DNA of 64,000 nucleotides from Psammoneis japonica. Its lineage: Eukaryota. The stretch is from positions 662,979 through 726,978 of the forward strand of contig QPGO01000008.1 of assembly GCA_008632985.1 (NCBI GenBank), given 5' to 3'. Below, piece by piece: positions 901-64,000 of the stretch (positions are counted from its first letter, which is position 1; the number at the start of each line of letters is the position of its first letter). A program made the position numbers and the translations under genes. The notes under the pieces were generated by a model that saw only the letters and a program-made list of their open reading frames with translations, was not told the origin of the DNA and did no database searches.

Positions 901-1189
901 GAAGTTAATGCTCTCGTGCTTACCGTAGATTGCAATCTCTTTCGCCCTTCCGCACGTGATATTGCGGTTTCCTTTATGCCTTTGGTCTACCGGTCTACCA
1001 TTACGATATTTGTTCTCTCTAGAGAGAGTGCTAATGAGCAGTTTGTAGTTAGCTTTTCCTGCAGAGCTGCTCTCTAGAGTCCTAACTTGAGAGTCTCTCA
1101 GCTTCTTCGATCAGTGCTCTAGCTACTTCTACGAGCGGCTGTGACAAGCATCAGTTACAACTCATCTTGGAGATGGCTGCGCAGAATAT

Positions 1190-3285
1190 TTCAATTCCAC
1201 GGTGCTTCTGTGACTAAACAAGGGTGACCTGCACACTGCTGCTGACAGAGACTGCATGCGTCAGTGTTGTTGCGGAGAACTTTTGCCCACAAAGCAGAGT
1301 CCCTGATGGGACAATTGATTTGCCTGCAACAGAAAGGCCATGCAACAATCAATCACCCCCTGGCATTGCTTTGAGCAGGACATCCCTGTCCTCTGTTGTC
1401 TGATGCTGCTCTCCAGCCTCCTCATTCTTGAACCAATCAAAGAGTCAAATGCCATCATCAGTGCTGATTGCACTTGTGTGGCATGAAGTTCACACATGTT
1501 CTGAGCCTGAAATTTGTCAGGCTTCTTGAAGCCAATGAACAATCCATGTTTTCCAACACTGCAGCCCTTGCATTTGATGCTCGCATTTGCTTTGTCAACA
1601 CAGCCATTGACAGAGAGTGCAGCGCTCTGATCAATGGTCTCCCTGGAAAGGTGGGAGGTCATGTGCTGTCTGGCAGGTGCTTCATTGACCAGGAAACACT
1701 GCAACAACAAAGAGCCCATGCTGCACAACTGTGATTGGGTTGAAATGGAAGTGTGACAATGCATGTGAAGAAACTCAGAATTGGTGGTGGAGCCATCTTT
1801 CTGAAGCCACCAGAGCCTGCCATTTTGTGGGGCAGTTGACAAAGAGCTCCGCACAAAAGAAATTGTGATGAATTTTGGAGCTTCTGCAGGGCTGGGCCTT
1901 GCATGGCAATCAGAGAACAACAAGACAATCTTTTGGACATGTCAGCAAAATGATCAAGAATGCCAACAACAACCTGCTGTCAAGAGGGCTCCCATCTTTT
2001 GATGGGGCAATCTTGTCAACTTGGCTGGCTGCACACCAGCATGCTGCAGAGAGACAGAAAAGCTGTTCCTGGGGCAGCCTGGATGTCAGCAGATCTGCAT
2101 CTGTGCACAGGCAAACATGAAGACAAGAGCAAGAAACAGCCTCCTCAAACATGTCAGCAAACTCCTTTTGAGAAGCAGCGCAAAAAGGCGCGCTGCTTGG
2201 CAAGATGGCTTTGATGCAAAAAAGCCAGGGATCTGCACTGAAGCTGACAGTGGATGGCTTCATGGGAAAGCAAGGGAGAGCACACAAAGAATCACCCTGA
2301 CATGCTGTGACAAAAAGAGATTGGAGAGATTTTTTTCAGCAGAGTCTGCTTGGTCATGAGTTTGGGTCATTTTTGTGCAGCGCAACAGCAGCCAGTTGTG
2401 AAGCACTGCTGTCGCTTCAGCAACAACACTCACAAAAGGTCAGAGAACCCAGCTCTGCAGCAGTTTTTTTTTTGCAGTGGGGGGCAAGGCAACAACAACA
2501 ACCACCGTGGAAGCCCGCAGGAACACAAAGCAGTGGCGCAGCAGATGTGGCAACATGGGGCCAAGAAACATGCGCGCTGTGGTGTTTGGCATTTTTTCGA
2601 CATTGTCCTTTGCTCCCAGCAATGATGACAACAATGCCAGTGCAGTGCCAAGCACTCCAGAGAGTCTGCCGGGGTGTGCAACATCAAGCACCCCTCCCTG
2701 GCAGCAGCTGCAGCCCCCCGAGCATCGTCATGAGTTGAGATGTGGTGTGGCTTGTTGAGAGTCTGAAAAGAAGGTGCTTCTTGCAGCAACAATGTCAAGA
2801 AAAGCAGTTGCCAACAAAACCTTCCCAGTGGACTAAAAGCAGCACATTCTGAGCTGCTCAAATGGGTGGGTCACACCCTCTCCCTCTCTCTGGCGGTGTG
2901 CGGAAAAAAAAGAGCTCTCTCCACAGCACACGGCAGCGACCACCCAGGTTGTGGCTGCCAGCATGAGCAAGCTTTGAAAACAGAAGGTGGTCATGGCCAC
3001 CAACAGCATCTTTTGTGCTCCCATCACCAGAGCAGCCATTGCTGGTTTTTTGCGCATCTTGCTCGCCCCGTTCGTCATGGTGGCTGGGCAAGGCGGGCAA
3101 AAAAAAGTGGCGCACTTCTTGTGCTCAGCTTGTGTGTGTGATCACTTTCTCTGCCTCCTCTTGTCATTCAGAGACACACATGTTTGATGCATGTGCGTCA
3201 TCAAAGCTTTCCAGCAATTCTTCATCCAAAAGATGTGTGCAGTTGGCTGTTTGAGGCTTTGTGTGAGATGTGTGCAGGACACTCA
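1190..3285. other. TpA/CpG-depleted, TpG/CpA-enriched domain 1 (degenerate element or gene relics)
   Basis: Only two TpA seen in ~2.1 kb (1215 and 2834, both TAA). ORFs lack Tyr (e.g. 1261-1923, 220 aa, no Y) and are rich in C/H/Q. Flanks have normal TA/CG content. Confidence 0.9.
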
Positions 3286-3600
3286 TCTATCTTCCGCACG
3301 ACGTCAAGACAACGAAGTGGAATTGTCCGTCCGCGAATCTTGCAGAGGTCTCACCACGTGCTTACCTATAGGTTTTGTATAGATAATAGAGAGTACGCTA
3401 TCGGTACGTACCGGCAAGGCCTTTCGGCATAACGCGGATTCCAGATTTTTCGGATTTGGCGTTCGCATCTCGCATCATCAGCTGACTGCCATCACAGCGT
3501 ACTGTAGTCACAAAAAGAAGACAAAACTACGGAGGCGTGTGTGTCGATCATCTCTATCATAGAGCTTCTTTCAGCCATCGTTATTGATTCGTTTGCCATT

Positions 3601-5073: not shown

Positions 5074-6723
5074 ATGCCGCTACCGGTGGCATTAGGACCC
5101 GCTGCTGTGGGTGTGAAACATGCCGTTCTTCATGCGGCTAGTGTTTCGGATCTTTCTTATCTCTCGTCAGCGTCTCTTGCAGCGGTATTGGCGAGAATGG
5201 CTTGGAATCGTGTGCCTGATTGGATAAAAGAAGATGTAGCATTTCGAAGTGTAAAAAATGGAGAGGCAAAAGAAATGGAAAGGCTGTCCTCTGTTATTGA
5301 AAAACTTCAGGCTTTAGCTGATGTGGGTTCTTCGAAACTCGCGAAGCCGGTTCCCTATTTGCATGCTGCGATTTTGGCCTACGTGCAACTGTCGGCTCAG
5401 CTCAAGCTGTCGGGATCAGAGTTTCGAGACAAAACATACCAGGAATTCGGTGGAGAATACACGAAAGAAGAACTCTTGGAAATTAGGCAAGCTTTAGATT
5501 ACGCCACATGGGCGTACTACGTCGACGACAAAAAACTATTAGCTGGTTACCTGGAGGAGGTTGGGTTTAGCTTGCTCCACAATTCACTTCCGTCAAGACC
5601 TGGATACGTTGGCCATTACGTGGCCACATCACTCGATGAAAAGATGTTGCTTATTGGCGTGAAAGGAACATCTTCTCTGGAGGATCTGCTGACGGATTGT
5701 TGTGGCAGAGCTGTCGCCTATGACAGTGGTCTTTCGCGCGATGTGACTCGCATAGAAGTACGTGCCCGAGTCCCAGAGGTGGTTTCAGCCTCCGAAGATA
5801 CAGTAGAGGTCGCAAGTGGGCACGAAAGAATATGGGTGGAGTATGGGGAAGATCTACACATTCGCTGTCACGAGGGAATTGCCGTTGCAGCTAAAAGGCT
5901 GGCAGACGAGGTGCAGCATCATGTGCAGCGAGCGGTTTTAGAGTCTGGTTATAAGCTTGCTATTGTCGGGCATTCTCTTGGGGCGGGAGCGGCCAGTCTA
6001 TTGGCGCTCATTCTGCGGTCGCGTTTGCCAGAGTTGTCTGATCAAAGTATGCAAGTTTATGCAATTGCACCACCACCTGTGTTGGACCATGATACGGCGG
6101 CGGCGTCTGCACCCTTTATAACATCTGTTGTCAACAACTCCGACATCATCCCCAGATCTAGCCTCGCGAATCTTGCCGCCTTCTTAGAGTTTTTGCGGTC
6201 GGTCTCGCTTCGTCTCAAAGAGCTGGGGTTGAACCCAGGCGGCCCGCGGTCTACCGCGGCATTCCTGCAAAAGCTGTCTCAGGGAACCGAGGGAGAATCT
6301 ATCATGTCATTAGAAGAAGTCATGCGTGCAATGGGGAAGGCACACGAGAAAGTAGAGTTGATTGACCCAGTGAGTGACACAATGCAAAGCTTCGCATGTA
6401 TTTCGACTGACTATTCTCCATCTCACCTGCTTTGAATTCGTTCTTACTCTTACTTTTGTTGGTTCCATAAGGATCATTTGTATATCCCGGGACGGGTTTT
6501 TCTCATGTACGAAAGCTGGAATTCACAACGCCCTGTTGATAAAAGCTCGACCAATGGAATTGCTAGTGGTAATTTTTGTTGTACAACTTCTTTCGGAACA
6601 GCTACACCATTCCGAACGTTCGAGATTGATGGTTACCGTATGATGTCCGACCATATTACGGCCTCCTATTATCATGCACTTGATGAATTGATTCAGAAAT
6701 TATCTCCTGAGGACCCTACTTAG
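5074..6723 (+). CDS. Class 3 lipase (DAG-lipase-like), exons 5074-6369 and 6472-6723
   Basis: Motifs GVKGTSS..D..TD, CHEG, VGHSLGAG (nucleophile), VNNSDIIPR, LYIPG and SDH. GT-AG intron at 6370-6471. Confidence 0.9.
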
Positions 6724-7293
6724 AGTAGTCTCTCCTCACTTGTTTGCCAGCAGACACAACTGCATGCGAGAATTAGACTCATTCTTGCCGCTTGAATAGT
6801 CGGTTATCATGTGGAAGCACCGCTAGGGGAGAAATGCAGGGCTTGAGCACGTACGTGTGACTCTTGAACGAAGCTGTGGTGAAGGTGAACTCTCAGTAGT
6901 GCACTCTGGAGGCCTAGCTAGTCTGCCAGTGATCAAGATTGCCCAACATCACCCTTATTGACAATACTTGGTGCACAAGTGTACTAAATGTACGTTACCA
7001 TACGTCTCCTGTAGGGTATACTCTCTAGCTTCTGAACCCTGTAGAGAGAGGAGGGTGCTGCATCAATGTTGCATTTTTAAAACGATGTGGTCTCATCCAT
7101 AGTTTTCGAACTTGGGTTAGTGACATGGTGGGCCCCTCACTAGCAGTAGTTAGTAAGGCCCTCTACTCTTAGCTTAGCAGTAGAGTACCGGTAGGTGCCC
7201 TACCGTGCGTACTGTACAATACAAGGAAATAATGACCAATTTATCTGCGACCAAGACTCAATCGAGACTGGCAGACTGGCAACCTCGAATTGG

Positions 7294-7900
7294 ATGTCAG
7301 AAGAAAACAATGATCAACAGTGCAATGACGACGACGACGATGACCACAACCACAAAAGCCAGGACACCGCAGATGCCAAAACCTCGAGAAACACGTCCTC
7401 TGATGGGACAAGCTTTTCATGACTAAGATTTAGATGCAGCCAGACTTCACAGCACAGCACTCTTTGTCTGGATCCATGACTCTCCCGCACCCTTGCTCCC
7501 ATTTTTGACAATGCCTTTTAGAGACAAATGTTGAATGCACAGACAACAAGTGACGCTTTTTAGTGGAGGGCCTCTTTTGCAAATGATGGGTTGTGCATGG
7601 GTTTAAAACACCCAGTGCTTCAGAGTCTGTTGTGTGCAATGTCAACCCCCAGAGCTGCAGTCTTTTGCAAGTGACAAACTTTGAACCACCAGCTCTTGGT
7701 TGATGCTGCAAGTTTGCAGTGCTTCTCTGCCCACAGCTCTTCACAGCACATCTCTGATGGGGCCTGCAGCAAAGAATCAGTGCAAGTCTGGCACACCCTG
7801 CCAAGATCTTCCCAACTTGTGCAATTTTGAGACTGCACACTTGATGGCCACCTCTTCAGACTTGAGCATCCTCTTGCCCTGCTTGTCAAGGATTGAGAGT
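7294..7900 (+). pseudogene. Gene relic running from unmutated sequence into the hypermutated domain
   Basis: An ATG-started acidic N-terminus (MSEENNDQQCNDDDDDD) ends at TGA 7420. A protein-like frame from 7434 to ~7900 is interrupted only by TGA codons (expected from CGA) and contains no Tyr. Confidence 0.4.
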
Positions 7901-7906
7901 GCTCTT

Positions 7907-7930
7907 TGTGTGTGTGTGTGTGTGTGTGTG
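7907..7930 (+). repeat. (TG)12 microsatellite
   Basis: Direct reading of the sequence. Confidence 0.9.
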
Positions 7931-10900
7931 CAGTGGAAACAAGAGCTGCTTTTTTGTGAAGTGAGTGACCCCTGTCATTGCATGGTCTGCCATTCAGTGC
8001 CAAAAAAGCAAGGCTGCTGAGGATGCACTGTGTGCTGCATTTGCCACCATTGACAGCTGGCTTGAAGAGCCAGGAGATTTTTTGCCAACATGGCAAGTGC
8101 TTGTGATGGTGAAGCCCTTGAGTGTCATTCATTTGATGGTGCACCATTTCTCTTGCCAAGCACTTGTTTCTTTGTTGGTTTTTTCATCTGCGGCATTGCC
8201 CTGATCCAGCCACAAACTTCAAGAAGAGCAGTGAAAAATTTCCTTTAAGAAGCCCTTTCACTGACATGAGAAGAGAGAAACCCCAACAACCTCAAATGAC
8301 AGTGTTCTGCAGCATTGCTTTGTGCTCACTTTTGTCGTTTTGCTGTCATTCCACTCAGCACTGAAGGGAAAAAATGCAAAAATGGCGGGCATTGTCACCC
8401 AGTTTGTTGGTGGCTTGAATGTGACAGCTCAGCTGCTGTTTTGGAAAGAGTGCAGGTTTGTGTGACAATGCATTGTTTGGAAACCAGCCCAGCCAAGGGA
8501 CAGTTTTCTGCTGGAATTTGTGAATGATCAAAGCCATGTGGCACCACAGCACTGGCACCTTCAAGAACTTGGTCAACCTTGACGAGTGGCTGGGCATGAC
8601 AAAGTTGGCTCACATGCTGGACACCAGCAGCGCAAAAGATCAAGCTGGCTTGTGCATGAAATGAGCTCCCAGTGTCCAAATGAGCACATTGTTCATCTGT
8701 TGTGAAGCTGGCTGCATTGACTTGAAAAGAGCAGTGCTGAGTGCCCAACAGAAAAATGTCAAGCACGTGCAAAGGTGGGTTTAGAGAAATGCAGACAGGA
8801 GTTGATTGCCACAAACCCATCGCCATCTCTGAGCTCATTGCTGCCAGACTTGGAAAAATCATCTGAGGCATCACTGTGGCAGGCATTTTCAACCCTCTCC
8901 TGCATGTGTTGGTGCTGGAAGAGCAGGTGATCATTGCTGGGAACAGCAGTGACATCTGGTGGCAATTCCAAAGCTGGAAAAGGTTGGATGAGATCAAAGT
9001 CAGCCACAAAGAGGAAGAGATGTTGCAGCAAAGAAACTGGAAGGCCCTCTTTTACAGTCACCCTGCTGGCATTTGTTTTGTCTTGATGAAAAGAAAACAG
9101 GCTGCACTGCAGGTCTGAAACAAACTGTGCAACAGCTTGATTGAAAATCTGAGCTCAGGGGAAAATGGACTCAAAAGGTGCAGATTCTTTGAGCCAAAAG
9201 CAAACATCCTCTTCAAGGTGTCCTTGGAATTTTAGAGCATTTGCCATGACAACTCTTCTGCGGGAGTTCTTTGGACATGGACATGATCATGTCAGAGTGC
9301 GCATCACCATGATCAAGGTGGCCTGTCTCACAGTGAATTTTGACCCTCTTCACAGGTGAAATTTTCACACCATGACAACCAGTTGTGTGCATGGCAAAAA
9401 TTTGTCAACCGTGACAGATGAGTTTTTCCTTGTGAGAGTGCCCAGCCACCCTCCATCCCTGCAAAACCTGTGTTGTCAATGTGATGCTTTGTTTCATTGC
9501 TCAACTTCAATTTCAACAATTCAACGCATGCGGCATGGTGTGCACAACAGTTGTCATCAGTGACCGCCAATTTGGTGCTTTGCCATGTGCTGCATTTGAT
9601 TTTTGCAATTGGATGGGCCACATCAAGGTGCGCCATTCCTTTGCCAGACTGCTGTTGTGTTTTGTGCCAGCTCATCTTTGCTTGAGCTGTCTTCTTCCTC
9701 ATGGTCTTTTCCTTTTTCCTCTTCCAAGTCATTCTCATCATTGCCAGAAAGCTCCAGAGCATTGCCAGCATTTTTGCCACCCTCTGCACTGGCTTTTTTT
9801 GTGATTGTGGCACTCTTGCCCTTTTCATTGCTTGGTTTCTTCTTGCCATTGCTGTGCCCCATGTTGAGCTGCACACCTGGCTCACTTCTTGATCTGTCTT
9901 CCTCAACATCTCAGCATTGCAGAGCTTGTTGAATTCCTCTGTTCCTGCATCTCCCCACAAGTTGCACTGTTTTGTGGGGTTGGTGTGAGCAGGCACAGGG
10001 TTTTTTTGTTTCCTTTTCCCCCCTCATTTGCAGCTCCCTGCTGGATTTTCTTCTCCTTCGCTGCCTTGCATTTCCAAATTTTCCAGCAGTTTTCCAACGT
10101 TGACAGCCCCATGACCTCATTGCTTGCTGCAGCCATCTCTGTGGCCTTGCTGTTTCCCAACTCCAATTTCCTCTTTTTCCATGCCACAGTGCTCTTGGAG
10201 AATTTTGGCACATTGTTGCAGAACCAAGAGCACGCTTTCTTGTTGGTCTGCTCTTCACTCACAATGGTTTCCACAAGCTTGTCCTGTCAAATTGGCATGA
10301 GTGGTTCTTCAATGGGCCTCATGTCCTTCTTTCTCTTTTTTGTTTTGTTTTGTTTTGTTTGGCTTGTCCTCTTGCCATTGATGGGCTCCCACCACCCTGG
10401 TTTCACCCACACATTTCCTGAGCTTGTTCTGTTGTCAGCACAACTTGTGCAAATGAGTGCTGTGTTGGCAGCATCATCTTCAAACACCTTTTGGCAACAT
10501 TTTCTGCACAACTTGCTGCTCATTGCATTCTTCATTGTCACTTGGGTGACGGCATTCCTTTTTGCGCTGACTGCATTTGGGGCACACTTTTTTGCCCAGT
10601 CTTCCCATGTCCCCCCCAGTCTTGCTTGCTGAATTTGCCACTGGCTGTGTTCTTGCACATCAGGCATGACACCTTTCCACCACTCAACACGTCTGCCTCA
10701 GTGAGGAATTTTGCTTTAAGAAAGAGTTCTCATCTCTGAGCCACCTCTTCAACTTTCATTGGTGTCCTCCACTTGCTTCTGTCCACTCTCATGATGCCTC
10801 TCTAACCTTGGGCTGAGTGGCCCTTTTCTCAGGCTTGTCCTTCCTTTGCTTCAGCAGCATTCTTGGCATGCTGGTTTTGCAGGTTCTAAGTTGTTGATGA

Positions 10901-12024
10901 CTTTTGTTGCAGCAAATGGGTTGCAGGTCTTGTCAAAACTGCCTGCCATTTTCATCTTAATTCAAACCACTTTTTTCCCTGAATTTGTGAAGTTTCAAGA
11001 TTGAATGTTCAGCTCAATCACACCACTCAACTGCCTGAAAACATGCAAAATTAATCAAATTACACACACGTGAGCATTTTGAACCACAAAAGCACTCATT
11101 TGTCAATGAGTTCAATGCACACATGTTTCCTGCCACAGCTGATTTCTTGCGTCATGTCTCACTGACATCATGCCACTGGGGAGTTGCTTCTGTTTAAAGA
11201 GCAGCTGTGGCTGAGATGGCTCATTGTGCTCCCTGTGCATCACACACAGAGTCTCAGTTGGAGCTTGCATGTCATGCAGTTGCACCCACACTGCTTGCTT
11301 TTTGCTGTCTCCAGTGATGGCAATTTTTTTTTGTGCCACAGTGGTGGACATGGGTTCTTTTTTGCACATGTGGGCTCCAGCTCTTCTCTTCTGTTTTCAT
11401 GTTGTTTTCTTCTTCTTTCAGCAACCTCTCACAGCCAAGTTAAAAACTTCCCTTCCACCAACAGATGCATCAGTTTCTCTGAAGCCTTGCATGACCTCTC
11501 AGCCTGTGTGTTTCTGTTGAGAAAAATGCACCTTTTCTGCTTGATGATGTCCATGAGCTCTGTCAGTCAAACAAAGGGCCCTTGGTCCTGGAGATCAGTG
11601 TGAGCAGCTCATCCTTTGCTGGCACCTTGATGTCCTCCATGTCTGTGCACATGCACCACTTTAGTGCACACTGCAAAGGCACCACAGATCGGAGGTCCCA
11701 CAGCTTCACAGGTGCAGCTGCAGTGTCCACAATGTGTGTTGCCAATGTGAGAACAATTGCCACAATTCCCCTTTGCCAGAACCAAATTGTTCACCACATT
11801 CTCTGTTGCCCCAAACTTGATGAGGCAGCAAAGAACATGCTTTTCCCACAGATGCTTGTGTGCTTTGTCCTTGTGCAGGTGAGCTCTCTGTGCCACCAAT
11901 TTGTCTGGGTTCAGATCATGGCACAAGTGATCTGGAAAGCTCGCGTGGCATGTTTTGCACAGCAGTCTCAAGACCAAAATGTGTGCCACAAATGGTCACA
12001 TCCCCAACCACCAGAGCTGTGCTG

Positions 12025-12240
12025 TCTCCCTTGCTTTCCACTTGCTCATGTGCCAAGTGAAAAATTGACGGCACAGTGTGAGATGCTCAAATTGTCTGGC
12101 AAACCCAGAACTGGATGATGAGTGCAAATCTTTTCATCCTGCATTGCTTCTCCCCTTGCTTTCCACTCATTTGTGCTCCAATTGAAAAATTGATGGCACA
12201 GTGTGAGACAATCAAATCATCTGGCAAACCCAAAATTGAA
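12025..12240. repeat. Diverged direct duplication, ~90 bp unit, ~125 bp spacing
   Basis: TTGCTTTCCAC...TGAAAAATTGA.GGCACAGTGTGAGA...TCAAAT..TCTGGCAAACCCA starts at both 12031 and 12156. Confidence 0.9.
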
Positions 12241-15200
12241 ACTTGCTTTTCACTTCATGCAGATGACTCAAGCTTTGTGGTGGTTTGTCCATCCTCAAAA
12301 TCATTGATCACAGTGCACGCAAAATCATTGTCACCTGCAAAAGTTTTCATTCATGCAATGAAAACAATGCAACCCATTCTGTGCCCTTTTTGTGTTGTGT
12401 TTCCAGCACTGTTGTCTGAATTCACCCACTTTGCATGACCAAACCAAGCAACAATGCCACCTCCATTTTAGCTTCATGCAATGCACAACAGGCTCTTGTC
12501 ACAACATGAACAATTGAATGACTGACCAAAGGAAAACAACCAGCCCATCATGTTGCAAAGAACAGACATTCTTGTGCACACTCAGCTGCTTCCATTGCAA
12601 TCCCCATTGTGACTCTGTGGCTTGTGAGAGGGTCAGCTCATTTGGTCCAGCACCAGCTGTGCCATTGTTGCTGCATCTTGGTGTGGTTGTGGTGGGTTGA
12701 ACTTTTTCAGCAAGGAGCAATGGTCATTGAAGCAGCAGAGAATTGGAAGAACTTGGCATGTTTTTTCAGCTGTCACAAACATCCGACTGGCTTTGTCAGG
12801 TGTCAAACAAGGCTGTTGGGGTGCACCTGAGTTGCCCCTGTTTGAGGATGCGGCGAGCCTCCGCCAACACTGACACATTGCCAGATGCCATGGGAGGAGC
12901 TGGGTTCGAAGGAGCAAAGATCTTGGCCTTCTTGTGAGGGACAGTCAAAGAAGGCGCTCTTGTGGAACAAAGAAAAAAGCAGAAAAAAGCAATTCACAAC
13001 AAGACTGAGGGACATGGGCATGCTCAGGTGAGCAAGTGTGCTCACCAGCATCACACAAACAGGTGCCATCTTCATGCTTCCTTCTGGCCCCATGTTCAGG
13101 TTTTGATTTGCAGCCTCATTTGTGTTTGTCTTCAAAGTGGTCAGCACTCTGGTCACGCATTCTGCATCAAAGCATTGTGAGCTGCGCTTGTTGCTGCACC
13201 CGGGGTGGGTGCCGGGATGCTCCTTTGGACAAAATGCTTCCCAAATTCTTGCTCCATGGCATTGCCATCCTTCATCACCAGCACCCAGGTCCTTTGTGTC
13301 ATGTGCTTTGTCTCCCCCAATGCATGCCTCAGTGGCTTCCTCCTCTGACTCAACTTCATTTGACTCACGAAGGACAAGAAAGCTGTTGAAAAATGTGTGC
13401 CACCCCTTCTGGGTGTTGGCCTTCCAAACAATTTGCAAGAGCCAACAACTTGTGTCCTTTTGCTTGCATGCCATGCAACACATGACCATTCCAGTGACAA
13501 AGCAGGCACCATGAATGTCATGAATGTGCTTGGTGGTCATCATTCAAGGTGCAAAGAGATTGACACACTTCAAAAAACAGAAAAAAGGTGTGCCTGTTGG
13601 CGGGGCATTGCACCATTGGCACACAAACTCAACCATTGCCTTGATGTTGCAGTGGAGGTCACAACAAAGCTGCCTCTCGTCCTTCCCCATCTCAACAGGT
13701 GTTGCAAAGAACTTTGGAGCATCCTCCAACTTTCTGTGTCAAAGAACACAGTCACCCTTTGCTTGGCGGGATCTGTTCATCCCCAAACCACAAGCATTGA
13801 TGCAGGACCACATGTCAGGACATTGGAGAGATTTCCTTGCAGTGTTGTTGGTGCACACATGACTTTCACAACACGTGGAACACAGCAAAGCTTTGGCTTG
13901 TGGCAAAGGAAGGGAAGAGCCAGGAACTCTGGAGAGGGCACCCAATTTGCAAAAAGTGCTTTTTTTAGAGGCACACACTGCAATTGCTTTTGAGCTTCAA
14001 TCAAAACAACTCCATTCCAAAGCCATTGGCAAGGTGTTCTGTGTCATCAAAATCAACACTTGTGTCATTGAAGACAAGTGAGGGATTGGGGTTGACCTCA
14101 TTGGCTGGTGGGGCAAAGTTGTTCACTGCTGTGGCCAGTTGTTGATTGGGGACAATGTGCAGAATGCACACAAATCACAAGAGTTCACACTCTTGCCTTT
14201 CAATGTTTGGGAAGAGAGGAGGTTGTGCTGTCATGAAGTGCACGCAAATTGCACATGTAAAAAAATTCAGAAAAAGCCATGGACCAACATGCTCTGCAAA
14301 TCTGGGAAGAAGGAAAAAATGAGTGTGCGCACTGCTTGGTGGCAGCAATTTGGGTGTGCAGGGGCAATGTGATGAGTGCACAAGAGTGGGAAGGACAAAG
14401 TCAAAACCAAGTTAAGCTGAAAAGCAACAAAGAAACTGGTGCAGGCATCACAAAATGGCAACTTTGCAAATGGAGTTGACCGTTGCATGTGCACCGCTGA
14501 AGCCTGTGGCTGTTGGGAAAGTTGACATTCAGACAAACAATGAAGCATGACAAACAAAAGCACTCATTGTTCTGTGCTGTCACTCTGCTTTCACACATTT
14601 GATTGGCAATTAAATTTGACAAAACTTGTGCAAATGATTGCAAATGAAAGTGAAAACCCCTGTGCCACAACCTCTGATGGCATCAAGTTTTCCAGCATCA
14701 TGCACCCAACAACTCCGGATTTTGTGGACCATGGCAGTGGCTGCAGTTTCTCCATTGGTTGAACAACACTGCTGAAGATGACTTCCCACATTGCATGATG
14801 CACGCACACTGCAAAGAGGCTCAGAGTGCACCACACCAAGATCTGTGACACTCAAAACAGCAAGCGTCATCAATCATTTCTTCACAATGCTGTGGCAACA
14901 AGCACAAGGCTCTGAAGCAGATTTGGCACAACAGCTGCCATGCATTTGACCACACAAAGGTCCTGGTTTTGTGTGAACAGCAGCTGACCCAAGCAAGAGG
15001 AGATGATCTGGTGCTGGCAGAGTGCTGCTTGCTTTGAAGGATTTTCTGCAGACATGCACACCATTGTCTTTAGCTTCAATTCAAAATTGGGGATGACCCC
15101 AGAGAGAGATGGCTGTTTCTGTCAAAGGTGCAAAAAATGCTCCAAATTCTTGATGCTCATGATGAGTGAAAGTTGTCTGCAAAAAACAACACAAGTGTGC

Positions 15201-15689
15201 TGAGTGCCAAATTGTTGAGACATTGTTTGCACTTTGTTGCATCAGTGTCTGACAGCCCACTTGTGCTCTCTCATCCCCTCATTGTTCTCGCCATGCCTGC
15301 ATTGCAGGTGAAAAAAAAACACCAACCAACTCTCAACTCAGAGACCCCTGAAGTTCCTCTCATTGAGGGAGCTGATGCAATGCAGTCTCTTGCACAACTG
15401 AGCTCAGCAAAGATGTGTGTTTGAGACACCTTCTTGTCAACAATGTGTCAGCTGCAGAAAAAGACCAAGGTCATCTTCTCTGTCATGCACGCTCTGCACT
15501 GGCACACAAGATCAAGGCTGCCCAGAATGGGGGCTGCAAGAAACTGTGCCTGGTGTGCACAGGAGAGCACCCGCTTGATGGCAACCTGGTGTTGACTGAC
15601 AAACCACCATGCATCAAGCCCCCCCCCCAACTTTTGTCAATTCTCAAAGAGAGAGGCTGCTGCACACATGCCCAACTTCCAGGGAGAGA

Positions 15690-17460
15690 TCAAGGATGTT
15701 TGCTTGTGGTTTGAGAAGGAAATGTTCCATCTGAGTGTGGTTTGTTGTTGTGAACTGAGATTTTCAACTGGGCAATCACAGCTGGTCTCAAATCCATTTC
15801 ACAGCCAGTTGTTTTCACCATGACAAGATGAGTGCAAGGCAAGAACTGGCTGTGAAAGAGGGGCTGCCAGTCTTGTCACTCTGTCCACCAAGCCCCTTGA
15901 GCTTTTTTGTCTCACCCAACCTTCATCAGCTTCAACATCTCTGGATGATGTCGCTGTGCAATCTCAGATGATGATCCCCACCACTCTTCTTGTGATGGGC
16001 AGGAGAGGAGTGAAGAGCCCTGCACAGCAACCCAAAAGATCAGCGGAGTTGGATTGCAACAAATTTGACCATGGCAACAGTTTTGTGGCAGTCAATTTGG
16101 CCAATGTTGCTCAACAGTTGCCTCTGAGTGCACCTCATGTTGCTCATCAGATTCTCAGCATGAGTCCTTCCAAGCCAATGCAGCCAATTTTGCTGAGGAG
16201 GATGAGCAAGAGCATGTGCAGCTGGACACTGGTGCAGACATTTCATGTTCACCTGAGAGCTTTTTCTGCCAAGATTTTTCCCATGCTCTCTCAAAGCCAA
16301 CCCAGCTCTTGATGGCACAAGTGCTTCTGTGCACAGCATGGTTTTGGACATCTGTGAGGTCTGGTGGAGAGCTCGCTTGATTGGTTGCATCAATGTTTGG
16401 ACATGTTGTGATCCATGTGATTGCTCAATGCAGACTTCACAAAAATGGCAGTTGGCTCAAGGGCTGCAGTTTAGAGCACATTTGGCACCTCCAAGTTTGT
16501 TGCATGGCATTGTCCATGGAAAAGTCAGGGTGTTGCCATTTGCAGGCAACTGATCAATGGGAAATGTTGTGCTGACCCTTTCACACCCCCAACTTCAGTT
16601 GAGACACTTGCTGATTTGATTGGCAGATCAAAAGAGCAGGGCCTGCTGTCCTTTGGCAAAGCGCGCAAGGCTGTCCTCATCACTGTGGGCATGGCTGAGG
16701 TGCATCATGATGATCAACATTCTCTCCTTCATGAAGAATGCAAGGACTCCTGGCTCCTTGAGTGTGTCAGAGCTGTCCTTTTGAAGAGCTCATAAAAGCA
16801 AGCTCCCCAGTCCAGCCCCTCAAGACTGGTGCCAAACACCTTCTTTGGCATCAGCAACTTGGTGTTGTCCAAGTGACTGCTCTTGCTTGTCTGATGCTCG
16901 CAAGGATGTTGACGGTGCTCTCAGTGGGTTTTCAGTTTGCTTGCGGCACTTTGCCTTTGGACTGACAATTGTTGCCCTGCTTGTGCCCACACCAAGGAAA
17001 TGAAGGAACCTCTGCTTGTCCCAACACTGCCATGACTGCCATCCAACCACGTCAAGGCTTTGCTGCAGATTTTCTCTTTTGTGGTGTCAGCAGTTCAAAG
17101 GACTTGGAATGCATGGAGGATTTTGTGCTGGGTTGAGCGGCAAAACTTGTTGGGCAATTGTGCACAATGACTGCCATTCAAAAAACAACTTCAGGAGGAG
17201 GCAGCAAATTGCACCCTCACAGGCTCAGCAGCTCTTCAATGGTGGCCATCATTTTGTTGCACCACACCACGCCCTTCTCTGGAAAGAATGTCTCTGGCCA
17301 GAAACACCCCATGCTGGAGGGCAGTCATTTGCCCGTTGGCAGGAGCACTGTCTGCTGAGCAATGCTCATGGGCAGCTGATTAAATTTTGGCTGTGTGCTT
17401 TTCATTGCTGCTGTTTTCACATCAGAAGCACAGTTCCTTCCCAGTGCATTCTGCGCCCCC
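15690..17460 (+). mobile_element. Degenerate Ty1/Copia (CoDi-like) LTR retrotransposon gag-pol fragment: protease, GAG-pre-integrase, integrase
   Basis: Motifs occur in Copia order: possible decayed zinc knuckle ~15696-15738; QLDTGADISC aspartic protease 16219-16248; LLWHQQLG 16840-16863; CPAC 16973-16984; PRQGFAADFLFCG (first catalytic D) 17047-17085; FWLCAFH 17385-17405. Many frameshifts and TGA stops. No RT or LTR recognised. Confidence 0.8.
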
Positions 17461-18155
17461 CCCCTCCCATGCACAGAAACAACAAGAGAAGTCAGACAGC
17501 TGTTTCTTGGCACAAAAAATTTGCAGAAAATTGCTGGGACAGAAGGGCCATTTTTGGATTGTGCTTTTGGCCTGGCCTTTGCTGCTGCTGATGACTTGTG
17601 CGTGCCGCCGACCGCTGGTTTGTCAGAAGTTGAGCACGTGGCTGGCACTGGCACGCTGCATTGTTTGGTTTGCTGAGGGCTGCCAGAAATAAAACACTGG
17701 GTGCATTTGTCACACCTGCCAATGGGGTGAATTTCTTCAAGGCCAGTGATGCAGCAAAAGAGCCACAACAAGTTTGTGGCTGTCCAGGTGCGCCGAACTT
17801 TGAGAGACTCTGTGTGCTTGTGCTGGGGCATCGTTCTCGGAAGAATTGCAAAAGGTCAAGATCCCAAATTGAATCTGCACAAAGCTCAGTCAGATGCCCA
17901 CAAAAATGTGTGAGGCAGAAGTTGTGTTCTTGAAAGTCACAGCAGCAAGAAGTGTTTCATTCACTCTTGTGTGCCGCGAGGTGTGCGAACCCTTAGCATG
18001 ACCACAGGCTCAAGTTCAAGCCGAATCTCATACAGTGCGGTACGAGCTCCGAACTCCAAGATTTGATCCAATACATCTGCGTGCAAGCACGCGCTTCGCG
18101 CGAAAACCAGCTCAAGTGTACGAACGAAAACAAAAAATAATTGAGAAATGGAAAG

Positions 18156-19123
18156 ATGGAGCAAGAAGAAGACGTCTTCCTCCATGAAAACCTGGCGAGA
18201 GCTGGATCACGCTTTCAACGTGGGTATCCTTATCGTCAACGAGATAAAGGCTACTACTATGAGGAATCATCAAGAGATCCCTTTTATTTCAAAAGCCTCC
18301 AGTCCAAGTTCTCCTCGCTTTGGCCAGAGGTGAATTTTGGGGGTAATTTTGCTATTCTTACTGCTTTTTTAGTCATATGTATTTTTCAATTTCGAGGTAA
18401 GTCGCGTTGCGAAATTCCGTATTCAAGTCTGTGACGTGACATCATGGTCATCATGGTAGGTCGTGGATGTGATTCCTTGCCAACATCAACATGCTAACAC
18501 TTTGTTCGCTTCGTAATGGACCGTGCGATGCAACAGGAGCTATTATTCCCAGGCTGAAAATAGTGCACGAAAACTATTTGTCAGGGTACTGGCTGGTTGA
18601 TTGGCTGCTGGATCTGTTTGACTACATTCGTGCATATGTGCACATAGCTGCGGATGTTTTGCGAAATCTTCGCTTCCTTATAACTTCACCCTCCGGTTCC
18701 TTGCTAGAAAGCGATGCGGATGCCTCTCTCACTCGACCAGATCAGAGCGGGAAGAATCGAAGGAGACGGAGATTTCGGGAAAGCACCTCTGCGGCGATGC
18801 CAGCATTGGAGGACGTCACGGAGCACAGAATAGATGCAAAAACCGAAAGTGTTCCCGCCGATCAAGGAGACTCAGTCACACGGGATTTTGATTCTACATC
18901 ACTTAATGCAGCAATTGATCAAGCTGAACATCCTGGGTATCACGATGAAATAGAGCCCGCGTTCCTGAACGAAGAAGATTACCCTCCAGGGTGGATGGTA
19001 TACCACCCTGTTCTTGGAGTTGTAGCCAAACAAGAAGCAGATAGATATCGCCAGGAGAAGGAAATACAAGTATCTCATACGATATTCCCGGTGATGACGT
19101 CTCCTGCAATCGAAGCATCTTAA
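18156..19123 (+). CDS. Hypothetical membrane protein, exons 18156-18396 and 18537-19123
   Basis: GTAAG...CAG intron at 18397-18536 joins two ORFs in frame. Hydrophobic segment FAILTAFLVICIF. Confidence 0.65.
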
Positions 19124-19572
19124 ACATCTAAGTTCACCGTGATCTTACGCGCACCTACAGTACTACTATACTCCTTTTTTCATCGTTGCACGTCTGCAGA
19201 CCTACAGTATGATTACCTTGCTTGATGGTGTTGTTTAGTAGAACTTGCAAAATAGAAGTAGCCGAGAGTGGCGGGGACATGACCATGACGGCCGGCAGGG
19301 GGTGGTTCTGGCGGTTCTGGGGCGCAGGCGGGGTGCAGAACACGACGGACGAACCTCCAAACCGGCGTGGTCGGACTAAACAAACGCAAAACGCTTCGCA
19401 AACCGCCATCAGCCATCAATGGCCAACTTGAAACTTGCCAAGGTTGCTTTGTTTCTTGTCTCCCGTCGACCGTGGCCTCCACACCAGTTATTGCCCAGAA
19501 TTGTTCTGAGGCTGGAGCAGCCGTATCAAATTGTTCAAATTAGATAACAAAGATTCGAGAGATACAGTTCTC

Positions 19573-26616: not shown

Positions 26617-29072
26617 ATGCCCGCCCTGTACCTGTTTGGTCATCGGACGATCGCAGCAGGCGACGATTTGCGCGTCAATAGCATTTCAATTATTCTCTTT
26701 CGAGTGTTTCAGCTTTGTCTCATTGTCGCGCTCTTGGTGCGAGCGTTGGATTTCGAAAGGCAGAAGTTCGAAGAGTGTCGGGGCTCGGGGAAATATGGTT
26801 CCTTGGTAGAGAGTGCAAGTGCCATGTTCTACACGTATTGGTGTTTTTCCGTTGCTCTGATGATTCTGAGCGTTGTGGTAGAAGTGGGTATATGGAGAAC
26901 AAGCGTTCAAGGAACTCCGACTCAGCCGGAAAAGAGACAGCGGCTCGTTCCGCTTTGCAAGATTAAATTCATTGTCACTACGATCTTTAGAATAGTTCTG
27001 TGTACCCTGGGGCTGATTCTATTCACGATCGCCAAGGATTATTGCGATTGTGTTGCAGAATCTCAAGCTCAGCAAGATGCGGCGAGGTTCTTGGTTGATT
27101 TTCAGAAGGAGTGTGCAGACTATGACAACCTTTACACGGTCTTGGCCGTTCTGGTTTTTACACACTTTTTGGAGTTGTGTTTCTCGGGCGTACTCGTTCT
27201 TTGGCTCTTGTTTTCTACCGTGCGACCAAGACATCGAGCCGGGGCACTGCTCGGTCAATTCGTACCCATGTCGAGTGAACAGCGTTGGATGCATATATGC
27301 CGGTGCTGCTGCACATGCACGTCTCTCCTCACCTGTTGCTTGTTTGGAGGAGGGGATACATTCAATGACGATTTTTCAGACATTTCCATTGCGTTGGCAC
27401 ATTACTTTAACAGCGAAGTTGAAATGGATGTTACTGTGTCTGACATTGTTGTGGGCCTCATCATGTTGCTGCGCATGCAAGAGCAACGAAGGCTGGATTG
27501 CACCAAGTCTCTACTAGGAGAAAGAGAGACGCTGGACGAAGACAACCAAGACAAAGATTTGCCTCTGCTGGAGGAGGGGGCTCTGGAAGTGGAATACGGA
27601 GATAGTCAAGAGGACGTCGATGACGACGGGGAAAGTAGCAGCCAACAAAGAGCAAAGACCCGAAGGACAAACACCTACTACAAACGACGACCAGAATCGG
27701 GGCTTGAATATGAACCCTTTGTTCGAAATCTACTTTCTCATCATAATCAAGAGGACGTATCGACGATCGCAGAGGGAGCTCGTTTACTTGATTTTTCAAT
27801 TGCAATCTATGCTTGGATAATGTACTTCAAGAATCACACATGCTCCGCACATTTTACCTTTGTTGGATCATGGTTGTGGGACATGCTTCGCTGCTCTCGA
27901 TATTCATGGAGATGTGAGTCGAAGCCCGGGATTATTGGGGACAACTACTGTGGTTGGAATGAGACTGCCCTTGCAAAGGAAGCAGGAATCGAGGATTCTG
28001 ATATTGCCTATGCGCAGTTTCGCGTCGGTGTTGCAGTGACTCCGTATTGTATCGCGATTGACCATTCGTGCAAATCCATTGTGCTTGCCATCCGAGGAAC
28101 GCTGTCATTAGATGATGTGGCTGCTGACCTTAACATAACGCCAACAGCGCTCGCAAACGTGGGACAACGCTGCGGTTTTGATGGTGAAGACGACTACTGC
28201 CATGCCGGTTTTCTTGCTTGTGCAGAATGGATTTACTCGGATCTTGAAAGGTAGACGAGGCTGGAAGTCTTTGAATGTTGTTTGTCATCTCTAGTGTATT
28301 TTTCTCACTTTCTTTCGATATCCCTCTTAGCCACAAAATCCTTGACGTCCTGCTCTTGGGTGACGCACAAAAGTATCCAGGGTACAAATTCCGGCTTACT
28401 GGCCATAGCCTTGGCGCTGGGATTTCGTCAGTCCTGGCTTTAATGTTGCGCAGCAAATACCCTGACTTGCGTTGTGTTTGCTTCGAGCCACCTGGTTGTG
28501 TCTTGTCAATGAGATCTGCAAAGGCGTGCAGTAATTTCGTTACGTCGTTTGTGCACGATGCGGATATTATCAGTCGATTGTCACTTCACTCGATGGATAA
28601 TCTGCGGAGCGACGTCCTTGAGATGATATCACGAATAAAAGTGCCAAAGCATAAGGTCTTAGACAGCCGCTTTGCTTTGCGACGCAAAAGCGTTGTGGAG
28701 CTTAATGACGAACAGCTTCATAGAAGGCAAAGCACGCCAGAGTCCGAGTTTACTAGACAACTTGCCCAGTTCAAGGAACATCAATTGAACAGCAGAAGGA
28801 ATCGCGAGATAGACGTTGCTTTGTATCCACCTGGGAAGATTGTCCTCATGTTCCGAAATGAAGAGCCAAAGTCTTCTCTGCGACGCATGTGTGCACCTCC
28901 AATGCAATACACAGCTCAGTGGTCAATGAACGATGATTTGAACGAAATCCTCGTGTCGTCGCATATGATAACCGATCACGATGGCTCAAACGTCCGTTTC
29001 GCTCTTGGGCAGCTTGCATCGGAATTCGGTTTGGAGCCACCTTACGTAGTCGATGAAAGTTTGAGACTTTGA
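26617..29072 (+). CDS. sn1-specific diacylglycerol lipase (DAGL-like), 4 TM plus class 3 lipase, exons 26617-28250 and 28331-29072
   Basis: MPALYLFGHR..AGDD N-terminus, four hydrophobic helices, AIRGTLS, CHAG, TGHSLGAG, LYPPG and TDH. Intron at 28251-28330. Confidence 0.92.
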
Positions 29073-29097
29073 AATGCTGGTTGTGCAGATAATAGTA

Positions 29098-29713
29098 GAT
29101 CGACAGCGTAGATCACACTACGAGTGTTTTCTAACAACGATAATAACGACATAAAATGGGATAAAGCATTCAGAAACAGCTGGCTTCGAGTTACTTCTAG
29201 AATAGTTGCTTTACCCCCACCCAGCCAATCACAACTTCGATGCTAAAGATCACGAGGCATATCTATGGAACCCTGTTTGTCAAAGAATATAATGTCCATA
29301 AAAGTGATCGACAGCGTAGATCACACTACGAATGCTTTCTAGCAACGATAAAACGGCATGAAAAGAGATAAAGCATTCAGAAACAGCTGGCTTCGAGTTG
29401 CTTCTAGAATAGTTGCTTTACCCCCACGCACCCAATCACAACTTCTATCCAAAAGATCATGAGGCATATCTATGGAACCCTCTTTGTCAAAGAATATCAT
29501 GTCCATAAAAGTGATCGACAGCGTAGATCACACTAAGAATGCTTTCTAGCAACGATAACGACATGAAAAGAGATAAAGCATTCAGAAACAGCTGGCTTCG
29601 AGTTGCTTCTAGAATAGTTGCTTTACCCCCACGCACCCAATCACAACTTCTATCCTAAAGATCATGAGGCATATCTATGGAACCCTGTTTGTCAAAGAAT
29701 ACCATGTCCATAA
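29098..29713. repeat. Tandem repeat, three copies of ~207 bp
   Basis: GATCGACAGCGTAGATCACACTA begins at 29098, 29306 and 29513. The units are highly similar throughout. Confidence 0.95.
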
Positions 29714-63227: not shown

Positions 63228-63599
63228 TCTGTTTCTGATGGCGACAATTCCTTTGATCAAATGCTGAACGGATCCTCGTTTCAAGCATGGGAGTTAAAGA
63301 ACCCAATGTTAGGATAGTAAAGGACCCAGAATGCAATGTTGCTTCATGCTGCAGCCTCGTCTATCAGTGTTAACTAATTAAAGTATAGGTGTGCACGACC
63401 AAAATAGCAAGCGTCGTTTAGCGTTGTGAAGCTCCCGGCGTTGAACTTCCATGCCGGTCGATGGCTGCCAACCCTTGGTAACCACGGGAGAGTTTGAGGA
63501 CAAAACAACTTTGGAAAAGGTGGCACCTTGACTTTCTTGAACTCTTCATCACGGTGAAGCAGCCAACTAGATTGTTGGTCCTGGGCCACTCGATCTTTG

Positions 63600-64000
63600 A
63601 TTCTCTTCCAAAAAAAAAGGGTGTCAATCATGTCTTGCAGTCTTTGTTTGTCACTGTGCTTGCCAGCAGTTAGTTTTACATGAAAAATTGACTGACAAAA
63701 CCTGCAAAACACTGAACCTCAGGAGATTGTCTCAATTTGCTGAGGTGGCCAGATGATCACAAACACCATCAGCTGACTGTCAGCCAATTGCTGTCAACTC
63801 TCTCTCTCAGGTCCTGCAAGTGCCACATGCAACACTGTCAGATGACAACAGCCACACCACTCCTCCATCTTCCATGCCACTCACCCAAAGTGCAAAACAC
63901 AACAGCCACAGGTCTGAACTTGTGAGCATTTGCAAAGTGCAGTGAACAAACACAATTCTGATAAAATGTCCGCACCGCAACAAACCTGTGTCAAGATTCC
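63600..64000. other. Start of TpA/CpG-depleted domain 3 (continues beyond the window)
   Basis: After ~63600 only three TpA remain (TTAG, TTAC, ATAA) and only two CpG. TG/CA-rich like domains 1 and 2. Confidence 0.75.

Follow-up and report, generated by a model that had tools for sequence, protein, structure and literature searches.

Near-total loss of TpA outside T/A tracts suggests context-dependent TpA hypermutation beside CpG decay in non-coding diatom DNA

Which process could remove nearly every TpA dinucleotide (TA) from a stretch of DNA and nonetheless spare those that lie next to a further T or A? The question is raised by a 64,000-nucleotide stretch of the genome of Psammoneis japonica (GenBank assembly GCA_008632985.1, contig QPGO01000008.1, positions 662,979 to 726,978 of the forward strand), which we refer to as the window and in whose coordinates all positions are given. 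The window contains three domains that are poor in both TA and CpG (CG), and we observed in them a depletion with sharp borders, a mass balance between the lost dinucleotides and CA/TG, a double-transition signature between duplicated segments, a graded context rule for the surviving TAs, and differing footprints of TA and CG loss. The explanation that we favor, with a probability of roughly 0.62, is that the domains are silent, non-coding, partly repeat-derived diatom DNA under two locally confined transition processes, namely a TpA hypermutation that prefers V-TA-B (V, any base but T; B, any base but A) and a decay of CpG.

An earlier reading of this DNA, made from the letters only and referred to here as the sequence-only reading, had placed the domains at 1201-3200, 7515-17995 and 63601-64000 (12,881 bp in total). 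We used these limits for the counts and took the remaining 51,119 bp as the outside reference. Inside, TA was reduced to 32 occurrences (observed/expected ratio, o/e, 0.04) and CG to 111 (o/e 0.15), while CA (n = 1436, o/e 1.83) and TG (n = 1495, o/e 1.82) were in excess; the corresponding outside ratios were 0.60 for TA, 0.96 for CG, 1.16 for CA and 1.14 for TG. The depletion in the domains amounts to ~25-fold for TA and ~6-fold for CG. In per-kilobase counts, G+C remained at 0.46-0.50 as in the flanks, while TA and CG collapsed. The borders of the domains became clearest when VTAB tetramers were mapped. All 1319 VTAB tetramers of the window lie outside the domains, which bears out the earlier statement that such words are common in the flanks and missing within, and none was found in 1188-3287, 7221-18030 or 63569 to the end. 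The resulting VTAB-free gaps measure 2,101 bp (1187 to 3288), 10,811 bp (7220 to 18031) and at least 433 bp (63568 to the window end), compared with 284 bp for the largest gap elsewhere in the window. These intervals delimit the domains better than the coordinates proposed from the letters, and we refer to them as domain 1 (1188..3287, 2.1 kb), domain 2 (7221..18030, 10.8 kb, TA o/e ~0.04) and domain 3 (63569..64000). The latter is the start of a domain that continues past the window end and holds three TAs, all of them TTA or TAA.

The residual TAs follow a strict context rule. Every one of the 32 TAs within the domains has a T before it or an A after it, whereas outside this holds for 772 of 2091 (36.9%; Fisher p = 2.2e-14). 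This is what the sequence-only reading had claimed, and each of the examples it named exists in that context (1215 and 2834 in domain 1; 7519, 7561, 8246, 8782, 9053, 9233, 10803, 14258, 16793 and 17690 in domain 2). Eight surviving TAs are clustered at 10717..11441, again all in TTA or TAA. Flanks of the V..B type surround 3282 of the 6232 strand-wise pyrimidine-purine (YR) steps in the domains (52.7%), yet none of 31 TAs, an outcome with a chance of ~1e-10 if TAs were distributed at random over YR steps. The rule is therefore not a by-product of domain composition. With 0 TAs at ~1641 V..B YR sites, VTAB is depleted at least 100-fold. The comparison of NTAN tetramers inside and outside the domains that had been proposed as a check was made within the window, and VTAB did not survive at the rate of TTA/TAA (0 versus 32). 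Survivors per class were 10 for TTAA, 14 for TTAG/CTAA, 4 for TTAC/GTAA and 3 for TTAT/ATAA, and the base on the far side also affects TA survival.

Protection by neighboring bases turned out to be graded. Counted on both strands, the ratio TA/(TA+CA) inside the domains was 18/533 (3.4%) after exactly one 5' T, 14/133 (10.5%) after two and 10/35 (28.6%) after three, whereas outside it stayed at ~31% across the three lengths (576/1880, 180/593 and 56/177, respectively). Protection thus increases as the tract lengthens, becoming complete at about three. A V-TA-B target with protected A/T tracts, as first suggested, is the best reading of these data, with the correction that protection is not all-or-none, since a single flanking T still leaves TA ~9-fold depleted. 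V-T-A-B reads the same on both strands, so that a single constraint on the strand being edited (5' not T, 3' not A) would suffice for the duplex pattern in which each surviving TA follows a T or precedes an A, with no need for a dimeric enzyme. The proposed strand symmetry of the target holds in this sense, but it is imperfect: in domain 2 (7432-17995), TTTAG occurs nine times on the plus strand and never on the minus strand, with 41 and 32 of the corresponding CA/TG forms (TTCAG + TTTGG). Retention of splice signals was considered as a cause of the TTTAG/CTAA survivors and rejected, as domain 2 displays no exon or open reading frame (ORF) structure and contains a single GTAA, and the TTTAG survivor sites in it have no longer motif in common.

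The fate of the lost dinucleotides can be read from a mass balance. The density of TA is 0.0409 per bp outside the domains and 0.0025 inside, and that of CG is 0.0552 and 0.0086, respectively, so that 0.0850 per bp is lost in total; CA+TG, at 0.1435 outside and 0.2276 inside, is up by 0.0841. Since the loss is balanced by the gain, the fraction of YR steps is unchanged (0.2386 inside versus 0.2396 outside), whereas transversional loss would have cut it. Random conversion of TA and CG in the flanks to CA/TG gave CA/TG o/e values of 1.9-1.95, compared with the observed 1.83. Further evidence came from duplicated segments within domain 2. A search in purine/pyrimidine space recovered an old inverted duplication that ordinary blastn missed, with its arms at 8669..9211 (plus strand) and 15692..16232 (minus strand) as defined by transition-tolerant local alignment. 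The alignment scored 91.5, against maxima of 23.1 in 100 shuffles and 22.8 among 20 other segments of domain 2, and comprised 316 identities, 145 transitions, 64 transversions and 34 gap columns. Its aligned YR steps were 23 CA/CA, 29 TG/TG and 27 CA<->TG (27/79), while each of the other adjacent double-transition classes was represented only 2 to 7 times. A direct duplicate pair on the plus strand (12020-12115 and 12145-12240) showed 75 identities, 17 transitions and 4 transversions, along with 4 CA<->TG doubles, and comparison of domain 2 with its other copies in the sample revealed three TG->CA doubles (9679/80, 14069/70 and 14087/88). Such CA<->TG doubles would fit an independent resolution of ancestral TA or CG after duplication; ongoing turnover through TA/CG intermediates would predict the same. 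The depletion of TA and CG is best read as mutational and as proceeding via transitions. For TpA, the mass balance, the constant YR fraction and the CA<->TG doubles between paralogs are indirect signs of a putative A->G/T->C change.

The loss of CG has a different footprint. In domain 2, a CG-depleted core at 7395..17599 contains 67 CG versus 563 expected and 27 TA versus 417 expected. It is bordered on the left by a margin (7243..7394) with 0 TA versus 6.2 expected and normal CG (10 versus 8.4 expected), and on the right by a margin (17600..17995) with 2 TA versus 16.2 expected in which CG is about half depleted (13 versus 21.9 expected). Domain 1 likewise consists of a core (1274-2380; 0 TA, 6 CG versus 61 expected) and a right part (2381-3287) that retains 1 TA versus 37 expected and 22 CG versus 50 expected (~44%). 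The context dependence differs as well. The census of NCGN tetramers that had been suggested alongside that of NTAN was run within the window and gave another rule than for TA, with survival best at GCGC, GCGG/CCGC and NCGC and worst at TCGA and ACGA/TCGT; strand-wise, CG survived at 42/522 GCGC and 6/442 TCGA sites. Moreover, T runs do not spare CG: after TTT, C versus T before G was found 0 versus 78 times inside and 107 versus 151 times outside. That T runs guard TA and not CG, and that the footprint of TA loss exceeds the CG-depleted core, suggests two processes, in which TA removal is either faster than CG decay or further-reaching.

Based on these findings, we propose the following working model. 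A TpA-specific hypermutation, acting as T->C or A->G on either strand, would replace TA by CA or TG, and CpG would be converted to TG or CA, most likely through deamination of 5-methylcytosine (5mC). The TpA process would prefer approximately V-TA-B, with a 5' T or, equivalently, a 3' A acting as protection; this protection would grow with the length of the T/A tract and be complete at about three, so that TAs would be expected to remain only as TTA or TAA. Candidates for the responsible activity are adenine deamination at TpA, as proposed for the alga Bigelowiella natans, and thymine modification. Cytosine methylation presumably drives the loss of CG, and the targeting may serve as a defence against repeats or foreign DNA.

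What kind of DNA the domains consist of was addressed by homology searches and by sequencing reads. No coding signal was detected in the domains: each of the six frames carries ~0.028 stops per codon, a density that dips only mildly in places. Six-frame searches of domains 1 and 2 against Pfam, with stops read as X, returned 0 families for either. The least-interrupted frame of domain 2 (12803-14149, minus strand, 1 stop in 300 codons; read with translation table 4) gave 0 matches at E <= 0.01 among 1526 word-sharing candidates and 0 matches in 1.84 billion representatives, and no viral contig matched it. Neither tRNA nor Rfam families were found in the 64-kb window, and there was no DNA match to a phage collection. 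Domains 1, 2 and 3 showed no similarity to each other or to normal DNA of the window, whether compared as nucleotides, in purine/pyrimidine space or by transition-tolerant tiling. Contigs built from one sequencing run (X1) reproduce 6001-19364 except for 1 substitution and one 8-bp gap, at a depth of ~60, the same as in the flanks; domain 2 is thus a real, single-copy locus, although X1 may be the assembly's own source. Over these 13.4 kb, window and contigs differ at two sites only, by an 8-bp deletion (7808) and by T>C (12020), and domain 2 contains both.

The same run showed that the center of domain 2 belongs to a dispersed, diverged repeat family, as the diverged contigs (153 of 165 less than 99% alike) pile up solely inside domain 2, mainly at 9.4-14.1 kb. 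The repeat part (9421..14129) aligns at 85-95% with numerous further contigs from this sample, with raised depth in the bins 9601-10950 and 12751-14550, and a segment (10655-12871) is missing from at least one other copy, in which 10654 is joined to 12872. Six loose-end consensus strings of other copies contain 0 TA and 3 CG in 135 nt, which hints that these copies may be TA-poor too. A 25-nt pattern taken from the most repeated segment of domain 2 had 0 matches in metagenomes. Domain 2 also contains a (GT)n microsatellite (7906-7930) and a (TTTTG)n-like run (10327-10373), both composed of "allowed" dinucleotides only, at which read contigs break.

The context rule could, in principle, reflect how TAs arise rather than how they are lost. 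In this case, TA loss would be context-blind, and recent TAs would be created by C->T beside T (TCA->TTA or, on the opposite strand, TGA->TAA). Such changes might stem from TpC lesions caused by ultraviolet (UV) light, from a TpC preference of the APOBEC type, or from "dislocation" errors that extend runs at T/A tracts. C->T limited to TpC would yield precisely the observation that every TA is a TTA or TAA. Several counts in the domains point in this direction: CA is short after T runs (24 CA versus 76 TG at length 3), C following T runs is mildly under-represented even where the next base is C or T (0.33-0.37 inside versus 0.46-0.53 outside), the consensus of four other copies reads TTTTTGG at survivor 13966, and, of the two survivors within the aligned paralog arms, 9053 faces CA, while 8782 faces TT and is uninformative. 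We nevertheless regard such a gain bias as unlikely. Outside the domains, 9 of the 11 TA<->CA/TG differences between the paralogs of an E1 dehydrogenase gene are VTAB, so ordinary substitution in P. japonica is not restricted to TTA/TAA. UV also strikes CpC and would thereby generate CTAB, but CTAC, CTAG and CTAT number 0 in the domains, compared with 4 CTAA. Uniform loss combined with biased creation of TA predicts depletion after TTT, where the TA:CA ratio is normal; gain would have to cancel an at least 100-fold loss exactly. Whether single survivors are ancestral or new matters little in non-target contexts, where turnover is simply normal. The context dependence is genuine, and the removal process itself offers its best explanation. 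The earlier preference for an enzyme over compositional drift is supported in part, an enzyme being a putative agent. We consider it equally improbable that a single process of dual specificity removes both dinucleotides, for example a deaminase whose substrates are both the C of CpG and the A of TpA. It would account for TA and CG being lost in the same domains, both to CA/TG, at constant G+C, and enzymes of the ADAT2 type from amphioxus and Trypanosoma are described as acting on A and C (bioRxiv 10.64898/2026.01.13.699255). However, the two losses differ in extent, in their context rules and in their footprints, with CG at 44-119% of expectation in margins from which TA is (nearly) gone (2381-3287, 7243-7394 and 17600-17995), and the main text of the same preprint mentions no CpG effect for B. 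natans.

Two further explanations place the cause outside any local mutation process. The composition might be selected or intrinsic, as in an element or RNA that avoids CpG and UpA, or in foreign DNA that was already poor in TA and CG on arrival. Suppression of CpG and UpA is described for RNA viruses, in many of which the two are jointly affected, and for mRNAs, and the TA-free loose ends of the other repeat copies would be expected, yet we judge this very unlikely: 10.8 kb free of VTAB at a TA o/e of 0.04 seem to exceed suppression of the RNA type by far, the domains have neither coding capacity nor protein homology, TA loss reaches margins with normal CG, and the CA<->TG doubles between paralogs need a passage through TA/CG or an independent resolution of TA/CG. 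Less credible still is an artefact of sequencing or assembly, such as systematic base-calling errors at modified bases. Only one sample contains this DNA, and it may be the assembly's own source; on the other hand, the separately built contigs reproduce the locus at flank depth, miscalls would not create paralogs with transversions and indels, microsatellites and diverged repeat copies in the domains, and miscalls on both strands would not be expected to leave a clean CA or TG at each site. RNA editing of the ADAR type followed by retrotransposition was also considered and rejected, as AA is enriched instead of depleted and TA loss enters the adjacent unique margins.

A number of points weigh against context-dependent TpA hypermutation beside CpG decay. 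All results on the domains come from one 64-kb window and one sequencing sample, and the context rule is drawn from 13 kb with 31-34 survivors. Since the outside reference consists largely of coding sequence, the relative "survival" figures are approximate. Simple conversion of flank-like DNA fails to reproduce the o/e values of other dinucleotides: the domains have AA/TT of 1.30/1.24, GC of 1.33, AT of 0.77 and GA/TC of 0.93, whereas in silico conversion of TA and CG in the flanks gives 1.14, 1.09, 0.93 and 1.07, respectively. These secondary shifts could stem from ancestral composition or from further context-dependent mutation. The strand bias of TTTAG is not predicted by a strand-symmetric rule. 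The shortage of CA after T runs would also be produced by a flux TTTCA->TTTTA->TTTTG, and the TA at 13966 may be derived, judging from the consensus of the other copies. No viral or transposon protein was recognised in the domains, and a foreign origin is thus hypothetical. TpA mutation, methylation and modified bases are putative in P. japonica. Finally, TA loss is near total here (o/e 0.04, zero VTAB) and much milder in the transcriptionally silent region of nucleocytoplasmic large DNA virus (NCLDV) origin in B. natans (TpA rho 0.45), and CpG, whose loss is unreported in the main text on that alga, is depleted as well (bioRxiv 10.64898/2026.01.13.699255).

Beyond the domains, the genes of the window are long and intron-poor and encode an aminotransferase, a histone deacetylase, two fused E1 dehydrogenases, a prolyl oligopeptidase, a JmjC protein and lipases. 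The prolyl oligopeptidase (53829-56075) is closest to proteins of Thalassiosira and Skeletonema, with 69-75% identity, and on this ground the diatom is Thalassiosirales-like. The fused E1 dehydrogenase (E1_dh + Transket_pyr + Transketolase_C) is present in inverted copies at 37269-39515 (plus strand) and 50867-53107 (minus strand), ~11 kb apart, which share 92.6% nucleotide identity over 2.2 kb and whose YR differences are mostly CG<->TG (26), compared with 5 CA<->CG. A tandem repeat of ~208 bp in three copies with 91-94% identity (29089-29713) lies just downstream of the second Lipase_3 ORF (28275-29072). Contigs of a second run from the same sample (X2) skip 6370-6471 and 18395-18534, the latter with GT..AG ends; X2 behaves like a transcriptome, and the two skipped segments are probably introns of the genes that flank domain 2. 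These contigs cover both flanks of domain 2 and none lies in 7351-17700, which we did not take as evidence. A search for the orthologous locus via the flanking lipase retrieved two short contigs (2.9 kb) with 49% identity and no useful flanks.

How do the domains compare with known systems? In fungi, repeat-induced point mutation (RIP) converts CpA to TpA, so that TA is enriched and G+C lowered. The diatom domains resemble its products in that mutation would be transition-only, dinucleotide-directed and local to repeated or foreign DNA, with coding capacity destroyed. RIP acts on duplicated sequence; domain 2 carries the inverted and direct duplications and has other genomic copies, and the three domains are mutually dissimilar. 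The direction is opposite to that of RIP, however, since the domains lose TA, gain CA/TG and keep G+C at 0.46-0.50. In Escherichia coli, the scarcity of CTAG is attributed to very-short-patch repair; there, too, CA/TG counterparts replace a word containing TA in a context-specific manner, but the effect is bacterial, genome-wide, repair-driven and confined to one tetramer, whereas the diatom domains lack all nine VTAB classes and only the domains are affected. Suppression of CpG and UpA by selection on RNA is moderate and acts in expressed or coding RNA, unlike the near-total depletion seen here in DNA that has no coding signal or homologs.

The CG component on its own agrees with 5mC-driven decay. 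CG is depleted with an excess of TG/CA in non-coding, repeat-derived DNA (o/e 0.15 inside versus 0.96 outside; 67 versus 563 expected in the core of domain 2), and CG in G+C-rich flanks (GCGC) outlasts CG in A/T flanks (TCGA). In contrast, 5mC-driven decay leaves TA untouched and would by itself lower G+C, while the diatom domains lose TA and keep their G+C. Methylation of this type is reported for four diatom species in the introduction of a paper on diatom methyltransferases, in which the term "TpA" is absent (PMC9998398).

The closest known case for the TA component is the TpA hypermutation of B. natans, whose target TpA and products CpA/TpG correspond to the dinucleotides depleted and enriched here. 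In mutation-accumulation lines of this alga, 231 of 302 nuclear mutations fell into integrated NCLDV and virophage regions, 230 of these 231 were A->G or T->C, all on TpA according to the text, and the de novo mutation rate was ~1000-fold above that of the rest of the genome, for which an ADAT2-like adenine deaminase was proposed as the cause (Mettrop et al., bioRxiv 10.64898/2026.01.13.699255). A TpA depletion of this kind is found in the diatom, with o/e values of 0.04 for TA and 1.82-1.83 for CA/TG over 10.8 kb and 2.1 kb, and, as in B. natans, the domains are sharply delimited and lie beside normal genes. The host differs, being a diatom (stramenopile) and not a chlorarachniophyte, and its domains carry no recognisable viral genes and are known from sequence composition rather than from de novo mutations. 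The rule of flanking bases and T/A tracts seen in the diatom has no counterpart in the main text of the preprint, which mentions neither diatoms nor CpG nor flanking context. Our literature searches yielded no report of TpA depletion in diatoms; TpA-specific hypermutation has so far been reported in that one preprint for one chlorarachniophyte, and we found no other report.

Against this background, our data suggest that the TpA process, or one like it, operates in diatoms, that it can run nearly to completion, and that it leaves a simple, countable footprint of VTAB-free intervals with TAs solely at T/A tracts. This footprint provides a cheap genome-wide detector of such domains for any assembly, V-TA-B offers a concrete sequence preference for testing candidate enzymes, and the differing borders and context rules separate the TpA process from methylation-driven CpG decay. 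For annotation, it means that DNA so treated loses all recognisable protein homology and that old viral or transposon insertions would escape homology searches. More tentatively, and at somewhat less than even odds, the domains may record a diatom DNA-editing defence that mirrors RIP, in which an enzyme preferring V-TA-B and blocked by T/A tracts would turn TpA into TpG/CpA within silenced repeats or foreign DNA, beside cytosine methylation and with a wider or faster footprint of its own, and which would be shared across stramenopiles, alveolates and rhizarians, given that direct measurements revealed this TpA chemistry in an alga of the rhizarian lineage. If so, the context rule of the residual TAs would be the first read-out of the enzyme's sequence preference.

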